A stretch of 64,000 nucleotides of DNA from Shigella phage Henu11: sequence record OM953433. One strand, given 5' to 3'. Positions 32,429 to 32,689 of the stretch are shown piece by piece (position 1 is the stretch's first letter; the number at the start of each line of letters is the position of its first letter). Made by a program: the position numbers and the translations under genes. Under the pieces are notes generated by a model. It made no database searches, had not been told where the DNA came from, and worked only from the letters and a program-made list of their open reading frames with translations.

Positions 32429-32457
32429 TTGACATTGAGATGTGACTACTTTATAGT
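32429..32457 (+). promoter_or_regulatory. sigma70-like promoter TTGACA-N17-TATAGT
   Basis: ttgaca 32429-32434, tatagt 32452-32457. Confidence 0.6.
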
Positions 32458-32689
32458 AACCTTAGTTTTCGTTAGCGTAGCGTCTATTTTGCAAACTTAA
32501 AATAAATGCAAACGATAATGTTTTTCTGGCAGTAGCTTAATAGGCTAAACACCAGTGAGGTCTTCCAAACCCTCATCAAAGAATTTGGCGTACTAGCCCA
32601 CGGTATGATTAATAAAGTGGGCAACATTCTAAAGGGTATCCCTTATGGGGCTTGGCTTAAATGCAATGAGTACCCTTTAAAATGTTAAT

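Follow-up and report, generated by a model that had tools for sequence, protein, structure and literature searches.

A candidate message-only relative of tmRNA in the tRNA cluster of Shigella phage Henu11 and in other phages of Enterobacterales

Complete transfer-messenger RNAs (tmRNAs) are encoded by some phages, namely the mycobacteriophage Bxz1 group and Bacillus phage G (PMC4131195), and the marine methylophage Melnitz carries a two-piece form (PMC9004378). The tmRNA of mycobacteriophage DS6A consists of little beyond the tRNA-like domain, and a similar molecule strongly inhibits tmRNA, perhaps by titrating SmpB (PMC4131195, PMC11915505). Reduced tmRNAs without a tag frame are known from mitochondria, plastids, phage DS6A and possibly two bacterial groups (PMC11915505). 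The tmRNA database papers list standard, permuted, intron-containing and tag-less forms, explicitly reject truncated matches, contain no form lacking the tRNA-like domain and included no enterobacterial phage in 2014 (PMC11915505, PMC4131195). Here we describe a locus in Shigella phage Henu11 (OM953433), within a window of 64,000 nucleotides that is the whole stretch of DNA analysed, where the 276-nt spacer between tRNA-Ile(GAU) (32338–32413) and tRNA-Arg(UCU) (32690–32766, + strand; ARAGORN and Rfam) appears to encode the other half of a tmRNA, the tag and its pseudoknots. As in DS6A, the phage would keep one half of the molecule, though the opposite one. Like the RNAs of Bxz1, G and Melnitz it would be a phage-borne RNA of trans-translation, often found beside tRNA genes, but those are full tmRNAs detected by ARAGORN and Rfam, whereas the present family goes undetected and has no tRNA-like domain.

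The preliminary description of this region had seen a structured non-tRNA transcript and had read it as a stable RNA of unknown function. The first part stands, as a conserved and structured RNA that is not a tRNA is predicted to be made from a near-consensus promoter, but it is not of an anonymous kind. Its tag reading frame, resume context, stop-codon hairpin and two covarying pseudoknots replace the second part. We propose that positions 32464–32622, with a 3' hairpin that extends to 32686, are a phage gene for a tmRNA-derived RNA, and on the sequence comparisons below we give this explanation as a whole a probability of roughly 0.6. That the locus is a functional gene derived from tmRNA is very probable; that its tag is translated, by trans-translation, is favoured only slightly. 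The preliminary description had drawn an analogy with stable small RNAs of unknown function in phage tRNA clusters, of which species 1 and 2 of the T4 cluster are examples. The likeness, by description only, is that of a non-tRNA RNA in a phage tRNA cluster, freed by tRNA-processing enzymes; unlike those species, the present family has a recognisable tmRNA ancestry.

The structure was derived by eye, using an alignment (A1) of 38 distinct core sequences; all features are on the + strand. Transcription is predicted to start at 32464, and the core, 32464–32622, opens with a 5'-terminal box, AGUUUUCGU (32464–32472), in which GUUUUC is invariant in the alignment. An A/U hairpin seen in the minimum free energy (MFE) fold (32485–32504; UAUUUUG/UAAAAUA, 32485–91 with 32498–504) directly precedes the resume codon, at the place of tmRNA pseudoknot 1, and a longer variant of it in other phages shows compensatory changes (CUUUG/CAAAG versus UUAUG/CAUAA). 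The frame-setting context UAAAU (32503–32507) agrees with the Rfam tmRNA consensus AAAAUAAuUGCaAACgA and, like the GCA that follows it, is invariant in the 38 sequences. Its U at −5 and A at −4 correspond to U85 and A86 of E. coli tmRNA, the main frame-setting nucleotides of that molecule (PMC2481249). The tag frame (32508–32543) reads GCA AAC GAU AAU GUU UUU CUG GCA GUA GCU, giving ANDNVFLAVA, with codons at 32508–37 and the stops UAA UAG at 32538–43, and is preceded by AAAAUAAAU (stretch 32499–32543). A helix-5-like hairpin (32526–32555) presents the stops on an outer stem CUGG/CCAG (32526–29 with 32552–55) and an inner stem (32534–37 with 32543–46). Two H-type pseudoknots follow: pseudoknot a (32556–32588), made of UGAGG/CCUCA (32556–60 with 32571–75) and CCAAA/UUUGG (32565–69 with 32584–88), and pseudoknot b (32589–32622), made of CGUAC/GUAUG (32589–93 with 32603–07) and GCCCAC/GUGGGC (32596–601 with 32617–22), whose conserved, A-rich loop 3 is AUUAAUAAA (32608–16; family form AUUAAUAA). 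The order of the parts is that of the middle of tmRNA (pseudoknot 1, tag, helix 5, further pseudoknots), with a hairpin replacing pseudoknot 1. The long-range stem that the preliminary description had flagged lies downstream of all this, and the informative part of the RNA, 32464–32622, upstream of that stem, had been missed there.

A covariance analysis across relatives, which the preliminary description had named as a check, gave pairing and double changes well above slid and shuffled controls. The 32 proposed pairs in seven helices were paired in 90.4% of cases in the 38 sequences, against 38–49% when the 3' partners were slid by 1–3 columns, and 17 pairs showed changes on both sides. The covariation score was 0.251 versus 0.118 and was exceeded by 0 of 500 shuffles. 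The outer stem of the stop hairpin (helix 2) was paired in 92.6% of cells, with a double change from CUGG/CCAG to CUGA/UCAG in 12 sequences; the inner stem (helix 3) was weak, at 67.5%. The stems of pseudoknot a (helices 4 and 5) were paired at 96.8% and 96.1%, with both-side changes in seven of nine pairs and variants such as CAAGG/CCUUG, CGGGG/CCCCG, CCAG/CUGG and CCGA/UCGG. Those of pseudoknot b (helices 6 and 7) were paired at 98.9% and 86.5%, with double changes from C-G to U-A or G-C. Stem 1 of pseudoknot b is found as CGCAC/GUGUG, CGCAG/CUGUG and CGCAU/AUGUG, and stem 2 is swapped for unrelated complementary sequences in Vi01 and in relatives L062, L087, L085 and L124. Thus, of the pseudoknots that flank the tag in a tmRNA, two of H-type are present downstream with double changes in all four stems, and a hairpin stands upstream. 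The whole spacer also folds more stably than all 200 shuffles (z = −3.2).

The tag frame appears to be under coding-type selection. Every one of the 28 distinct tag sequences compared has exactly 10 codons plus a stop, without indels, and the frame is intact in 27 of them, one having an internal UAG; indels are many in the 5' leader, in the spacer after the stop and in the pseudoknot loops. Third codon positions are the most variable (entropy 0.60/0.42/0.95 by codon position), and the ratio of non-synonymous to synonymous change (pN/pS) is 0.53 in the tag frame and 1.26 and 1.16 in the two alternative frames, where stops are common. Synonymous changes are frequent (GCU, GCC, GCG or GCA as last codon; CUG/UUG; GAU/GAC; GAA/GAG; UAA, UAG or UGA as stop) and replacements are conservative, the peptide starting AN(D/E) and ending L(A/M)(A/V)A. 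The C-termini LAVA, LAAA, LMAA and LQAA, with stops in a covarying hairpin, are as expected of a tmRNA tag, and the E. coli host tag, ANDENYALAA followed by two stops (ARAGORN, MG1655), has the same length. In the ssrA tag, AANDxxY at the N-terminus is the SspB site and LAA at the C-terminus is the ClpX site; the phage tags would therefore keep the SspB part and change the ClpX end.

No ATG, GTG or TTG lies between the in-frame UAG at 32478–80 and the GCA, and no Shine-Dalgarno sequence was found there; across the family an in-frame UAG stands 8–10 codons upstream of the tag. The resume codon is thus of the tmRNA type, GCA with A at −4, U at −5 and no start codon. A small protein gene was rejected because it would lack both a start codon and a Shine-Dalgarno sequence, and for the same reason translation of the tag could occur only by trans-translation. 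An overlapping AUG frame (MQTIMFFWQ) was also rejected, being unconserved and often interrupted by stops. The earlier statement that the spacer holds no open reading frame is correct in that all mechanical frames overlapping it have at most 47 amino acids, but it misleads as the tmRNA-type tag frame is present. The internal UAG is that of Klebsiella phage GArcari-2022a (L130, 812–845), at tag codon 5 (ANDN-stop-YLAVA). An N4-like contig that carries the element (L109) encodes a tRNA with anticodon CUA at 9535–9610, of the amber-suppressor type, which ARAGORN labels 'Pyl'.

Comparison with Rfam places the tag and the sequence around it among tmRNAs. The tmRNA family (RF00023) matches only at model positions 84–140, the tag and its upstream context, with 8.5–12.1 bits against a gathering threshold of 47. 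The stretch in the window also aligns to the end of the tmRNA_permuted model, well below threshold; for members of the family the scores on that model rise to 31.1, 28.9 and 28.3 bits, and alpha_tmRNA is matched below threshold too. The alignment to positions 206–304 of beta_tmRNA spans the tag and the pseudoknot after it, where the sequences are clearly similar (E = 0.005 in a 221-nt search), pseudoknot a falling on the post-tag pseudoknot of the model, and this match to a coding piece recurs in L032, L095, L128 and L171. In other viral contigs ARAGORN finds full permuted tmRNAs with similar tags of 10–11 amino acids (ANDERFLMAA, ANDNAFLMAA). Given the permuted-model matches and these similar tags, the family looks like a descendant of the coding piece of a two-piece tmRNA. 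The resemblance to the beta-proteobacterial coding piece (RF01850, RF04321) extends to the context AUAAAU followed by GCAAACGA, to a 10-codon tag ANDxxF/YxxAA, to stops followed by an H-type pseudoknot of similar sequence (CCUUGUnACnAAA) and to the fact that the coding piece is a separate RNA that itself has no T-arm or CCA. Unlike that piece, the phage RNA has no 5' acceptor strand, has two pseudoknots after the tag and has a plain hairpin for pseudoknot 1; no acceptor-piece gene is adjacent or present in the complete genome of Sa179lw, a 46.8-kb phage that carries the element and has no tRNA or tmRNA gene. Two-piece systems differ further in that the hosts here, Enterobacterales, have a one-piece tmRNA, and the family scores below the Rfam thresholds.

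Several observations weigh against our explanation. The pN/pS of 0.53, measured over 10 codons, is no more than moderate, and tag codons 7–10 are also under the constraint of helix 5. All Rfam scores are sub-threshold (at most 31 bits versus 47–84) and the matches never convincingly include acceptor or T-arm pairs; ARAGORN scans of the window and of family loci gave no tmRNA. The complete Sa179lw genome contains no tRNA, tmRNA, acceptor piece or other tmRNA-related Rfam match. The duplex of the 5' box with the host tag, described below, has −14.5 kcal/mol and is no better than those of shuffled 20-mers (mean −15.8).

The acceptor stem with G3-U70, the T-arm and the 3' CCA of a standard tmRNA were not detected in the core, and no T-loop sequence occurs within 32464–32689. 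The gene order is not permuted, as the neighbour in the window is a normal tRNA-Ile followed by the promoter and the RNA starts at the box. The best scores on the permuted model, 21.7–31.1 bits against 47, leave the tRNA-domain pairs unsatisfied, and an Rfam scan of 29–37 kb by E-value returned no match to a tRNA-like domain. A canonical tRNA or tmRNA was rejected on the negative results of ARAGORN and of the Rfam gathering thresholds. At least some carriers, then, encode no tRNA-like partner, and since Sa179lw has no tRNA or tmRNA gene or related match, the known mechanism of translation is unavailable in cis.

Candidates for the missing half were rejected in turn. The tRNA-like sequence at 32908–32990 has G-C as its third acceptor pair and resembles a divergent tRNA-Trp. 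It is called neither by ARAGORN nor by the Rfam tRNA model even at E ≤ 10. G and CCA come after its acceptor, AUGGGAC/GUCCCAU, its T-arm is GGGGUUCGAUUCCUC, and the 9-nt loop of an anticodon-like arm contains CCA (Trp); tRNA-Trp is otherwise absent from the cluster, so that this may be it. A degenerate T-arm upstream of the element in an Erwinia phage is a decayed tRNA that aligns with the 3' end of the tRNA-Ile of the window. No family member among 137 pattern matches is a 'missing link' with a tRNA-like domain, and the sole tRNA-like 5' leader (L236) is paired with a 14-codon tag typical of ordinary tmRNAs. Upstream of the promoter of the element in Salmonella phage Vi01 (L002, 1181–1325) and Klebsiella phage KpS110 (L129, about 480–605) there is a roughly 145-nt RNA that has a 7-bp acceptor, UGCGGUG/CACCGCA, a canonical T-arm and a large irregular interior. 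It is not called by ARAGORN, and its third acceptor pair, C-G, implies no alanine identity.

The family is widespread. Shigella phage Henu12 matches the region at 100% identity and many Felix O1-like phages (Felixounavirus) at 85–98%. A blastn search with the spacer matched 610 phage records, with hosts in Salmonella, Escherichia, Klebsiella, Shigella, Erwinia, Citrobacter and Enterobacter. Query positions 1–210, the promoter and the core, are common to nearly all Felixounaviruses at 96–97% identity; only 62 records cover at least 80% of the spacer, so most of the matched records are without the 3' module. Query positions 86–210 match unrelated phages at 72–82% identity: lambdoid HK633, Vi01-like Ackermannviridae, N4-like FSL SP-058, Erwinia Ounavirinae and siphophages of Klebsiella, Salmonella and Escherichia. 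Some 130 relatives were identified, every one from Enterobacterales, and they belong to Ounavirinae, Ackermannviridae, the N4-like phages, siphophages and lambdoid prophages. Pattern scans of IMG/VR gave more than 120 viral contigs with the element, and 133 pattern matches combine a 10-codon tag with a box-like 5' leader. When one genome per bacterial species was scanned, true members were found only in Enterobacterales (prophages of Rosenbergiella, Pseudocitrobacter, Rouxiella, Erwinia and Pantoea). An HK633-type copy is present in 135 of 5426 complete E. coli genomes and is unannotated among the matches listed. The locus bears no annotation, or the label 'hypothetical protein', in phage records and RefSeq E. 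coli genomes, and no record examined gives it as an RNA gene. In FSL SP-058 (L003, KC139517.1) the annotated tRNA coordinates are about 1136 nt off, tRNA-Leu being annotated at 1140–1225 and detected at 4–89. Vi01 has an insertion of about 300 nt right after pseudoknot b (L002, 1640–1925), flanked by a short duplicated GACUAAA... segment and absent from KpS110.

The element lies downstream of Q and PR' and before the lysis genes in lambdoid phages. Elsewhere it is usually beside tRNA genes, often upstream of tRNA-Arg(UCU), also in many unrelated carriers. The core is nevertheless found in phages and prophages with no tRNA nearby, and is more conserved than its 3' neighbour, which is not as expected of a passive leader. 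The RNA is therefore more than a tRNA leader, the scenario that the preliminary description had named as its own refutation. No description of a tmRNA-like RNA without a tRNA-like domain in phages was found in the accessible full-text literature, subscription journals being mostly outside the search. Papers on prophage small RNAs do not cover the family (PMC4104026; bioRxiv 10.64898/2026.05.13.724894), and ten family loci, including lambdoid ones, gave no match to AgvB (RF02702), AsxR, STnc100 or Pas small RNAs at Rfam E ≤ 1.

The sigma-70-type promoter claimed for the locus is present, with TTGACA at 32429–32434, a 17-nt spacing and TATAGT at 32452–32457 on the + strand, matching 11 of 12 consensus positions, and its placement is kept in relatives. 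It is one of only two 11/12 sites within 29.5–36.5 kb. That stretch shows no excess of weaker promoter-like matches (8 against an expected 14.5), so that the case for the promoter comes from its conservation. Relatives L089 and L099 have the identical promoter 6 nt upstream of the same 5' box, unrelated phages have TTGACA-17-TAATCT and TTGACA-17-TAGATT 7–11 nt upstream of it, and independent promoters lie 5–13 nt before the box in at least four other phage lineages. The distance from the end of the −10 element to the box is 6 nt in the window, 7 in the Erwinia phage, 11 in several siphophages and 5–13 in two others. ARAGORN and Rfam found no tRNA between tRNA-Ile and tRNA-Arg, as had been said, and the only other Rfam matches in the spacer were miRNA-like, at chance level, on the 3' hairpin. 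No terminator was found between the upstream RNA and tRNA-Arg, and RNase P cleavage at the 5' end of the tRNA would fix the 3' limit of the RNA.

The 5' box has the consensus (A/G)GUUUUCG(U) and is nearly invariant. Exact GTTTTCG was found 42–60 nt upstream of the tag in 129 of the 137 pattern matches, the other eight being four one-base variants and four non-members. The box is a perfect complement, over 9–11 nt, of GACGAAAACUA in E. coli ssrA (tag codons 3–6, enterobacterial ssrA), and it also resembles the D-loop analogue of tmRNA, GGUUUCGAC, in the Rfam consensus. Its own complement, ACGAAAACT, occurs nowhere else in the window; one-mismatch matches are at chance level, with none in the tRNA cluster. 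Pairing of the box in cis with the start of its own tag was rejected, as the box is invariant while tag codons 3–4 vary and no compensatory variation is seen. Antisense pairing with host tmRNA, where the complementarity is real and the energy is that of shuffled sequences, was kept only as a hypothesis. Ackermannviridae have an extra 82-nt 5' hairpin that pairs with the box; the lambdoid prophages have no promoter of their own, and in them one strand of a conserved hairpin stands before the box.

The stem flagged in the preliminary description, aaagggta at 32631–32638, does pair with taccctTT, with the 3' arm at 32671–32678, one position from where it had been placed. It is the core of a longer hairpin (32623–32686, + strand) with a 15-bp stem, one C/A mismatch, a U39-G70 wobble at the top and an insert (32640–32667) containing CCCUUAUGGGGCUUGGCUUAAAUGCA; the MFE is −22 kcal/mol (z = −2.7 against shuffles). 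Put forward as the main structural evidence, this stem turns out to belong to a separate 3' module, swapped in most Felixounaviruses, which have a different hairpin of 16 bp with a UAA loop, and placed elsewhere in other phages. A homologous hairpin with the CCCUUAUGGGGCUUGGCUUAAAUGCA insert stands upstream of the element in L020, L022 and L073, with two compensatory double substitutions. Some long hairpin comes right after pseudoknot b in every folded member, KpS110 having been read by eye only. As read from the folds, five of seven sequence-distinct versions have a U-G wobble as the third pair counted from the loop, with G on a 3' strand starting (C/G)AG; the Erwinia-phage and Ackermannviridae hairpins have no such wobble, and in the window's own hairpin the second of these loop-proximal pairs is an A/C mismatch. 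If the analogy holds, this geometry is that expected of a masked acceptor helix with G3-U70 at the junction of a permuted tmRNA. Repeated 18-bp hairpins, CACAACAGGUAAGAGCAUU, insert, AGUGCUCUUUCCGUUGUG, flank the element in the lambdoid prophages and siphophages L001 (1370–1740), L032, L095, L125 and L126–L128. Their inserts vary, some having a T-arm-like GGUUCGAAUCC and resembling a tRNA-like gene without a D-arm, and no Rfam family matches them. The CACAACA motif of these modules resembles GcvB target sites.

Translation of the tag would mean that, during infection, stalled ribosomes receive (A)ANDNVFLAVA instead of, or alongside, the host's (A)ANDENYALAA, and that the phage can thereby alter ribosome rescue and the fate of the tagged proteins. 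As the tRNA-like half is undetected and translation could start only by trans-translation, the alanyl-tRNA-like function would have to come from elsewhere. We favour, tentatively, an association in trans with the host alanyl-tmRNA-SmpB complex, most likely through the single-stranded 5' box. An unlikely alternative to docking is that the RNA is a cryptic complete tmRNA, in which the 3' hairpin is a masked acceptor helix whose loop is cut by tRNA-processing enzymes before CCA addition, exposing a minihelix with G3-U70 that might by analogy be charged by alanyl-tRNA synthetase. Permuted tmRNA genes are processed in this way (PMC11915505), the long hairpin after pseudoknot b and its third-pair wobble are where such a helix would need them, and the tmRNA_permuted alignment sets GGGAGUG of an N4-like member on the acceptor 5' strand GGGGgUG, at low posterior probability. 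In lambdoid prophages the same strand would be that directly upstream of the box, where CAGUGCU-CUUUCC-AGUUUUCGUC resembles E. coli GGGGCUG-AUUCU-GGAUUCGAC. However, there is no T-arm and no encoded CCA, the nucleotide after the stem is variable, the UAA loop of most Felixounaviruses would suit RNase P poorly, the wobble is missing from the Erwinia-phage and Ackermannviridae versions and may otherwise be plain inheritance among homologous hairpins, and some inserts resemble tRNA-like genes in the opposite orientation.

The main rival, which seems to us rather unlikely, is an untranslated decoy or sponge that mimics the mRNA-like half and titrates the SmpB tail, ribosomal protein S1 and RNase R, so damping host tagging or non-stop mRNA decay during infection. 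The lack of a tRNA-like domain, in cis and in all of Sa179lw, would then be natural, as would conservation of the UA context ahead of the tag, of the hairpin at its stop codons and of the pseudoknots; pseudoknot b loop 3 (GAUUAAUAA) resembles the end of the host tag (GCUUAAUAA), and the inhibitory molecule similar to that of DS6A is a precedent (PMC4131195, PMC11915505). A pure mimic would nonetheless have no need of a fixed length of 10 codons without indels, of a stop-free frame with third-position variation or of a conserved hydrophobic C-terminus (LAVA, LMAA, LAAA). The same coding-type conservation is left unexplained if the RNA is an ordinary base-pairing small RNA, its 5' box acting as a seed against host tmRNA tag codons 3–6 or mRNAs and the rest being an inherited scaffold. 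The box is suitably placed for this, as the predicted transcript begins with it in several promoter contexts, and is a nearly invariant perfect complement of GACGAAAACUA, but the duplex energy does not exceed that of shuffled sequences and in Ackermannviridae the box is sequestered in cis by the long 5' hairpin; we consider this quite improbable. A decaying relic or plain leader of the tRNA operon, degraded after RNase P cleavage, would agree with the absence of a terminator before tRNA-Arg, by which the promoter drives the tRNA too, and with the in-frame stop in the tag of GArcari-2022a. It is very improbable indeed, given a core that stays 96–97% identical across Felixounaviruses while its 3' neighbour is swapped, that is kept in at least six unrelated phage groups, also where there is no tRNA at all, and that shows compensatory changes in six helices and a frame intact in 27 of 28 tags.

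The surrounding cluster has 26 tRNA genes by ARAGORN and some further features. Ahead of the first tRNA, at 30398–30427, TTGACA-18-TATAGT forms another near-consensus promoter, which has an extended −10 TG. A weak tRNA at 31339–31413 is reported by Rfam alone (30.4 bits) and missed by ARAGORN. Between tRNA-Met and tRNA-Ile an open reading frame of 161 amino acids (31859–32344) has CxxC pairs and an HNH-like motif (HH...N...H) and resembles a homing endonuclease; one relative annotates an HNH endonuclease here. Several spacers of the cluster are about 240 nt long and structured in appearance, and that at 33094–33342 contains, directly before tRNA-Leu(UAG), a stem-insert-stem hairpin AGAGAACUUC...GGAAGUUCUCU at about 33265–33336.

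The family is the reverse of the known reduced tmRNAs, as the message is apparently under coding-type selection and the tRNA-like half is undetected. It is not rare: the sequenced phages that carry it, which infect E. coli, Salmonella, Klebsiella, Shigella and Erwinia, number in the hundreds and include model and therapeutic phages, prophages of pathogenic E. coli have it as well, and it will keep being overlooked by annotation pipelines and tmRNA databases that reject 'truncated' matches. Its frequent linkage to tRNA-Arg(UCU), taken with the tagging that occurs at rare codons, would fit a role in coping with stalling and tagging there. Should the RNA go untranslated, it would naturally inhibit, or act as a decoy for, a pathway targeted by antibiotics. 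Should the tag be translated, the phages would choose the degradation tag of stalled proteins, which would raise the question how trans-translation can be put together from separate parts; docking in trans or self-charging, if either is true, would be an undescribed way to assemble a working tmRNA. It is conceivable, though doubtful, that many enterobacterial phages (Felix O1-, Vi01-, N4-like and lambdoid) reprogramme ribosome rescue with a message-only 'half tmRNA', which would work either by docking on the alanyl-tmRNA-SmpB complex of the host or by being charged on its own, with a minimal G3-U70 helix freed from the 3' hairpin.

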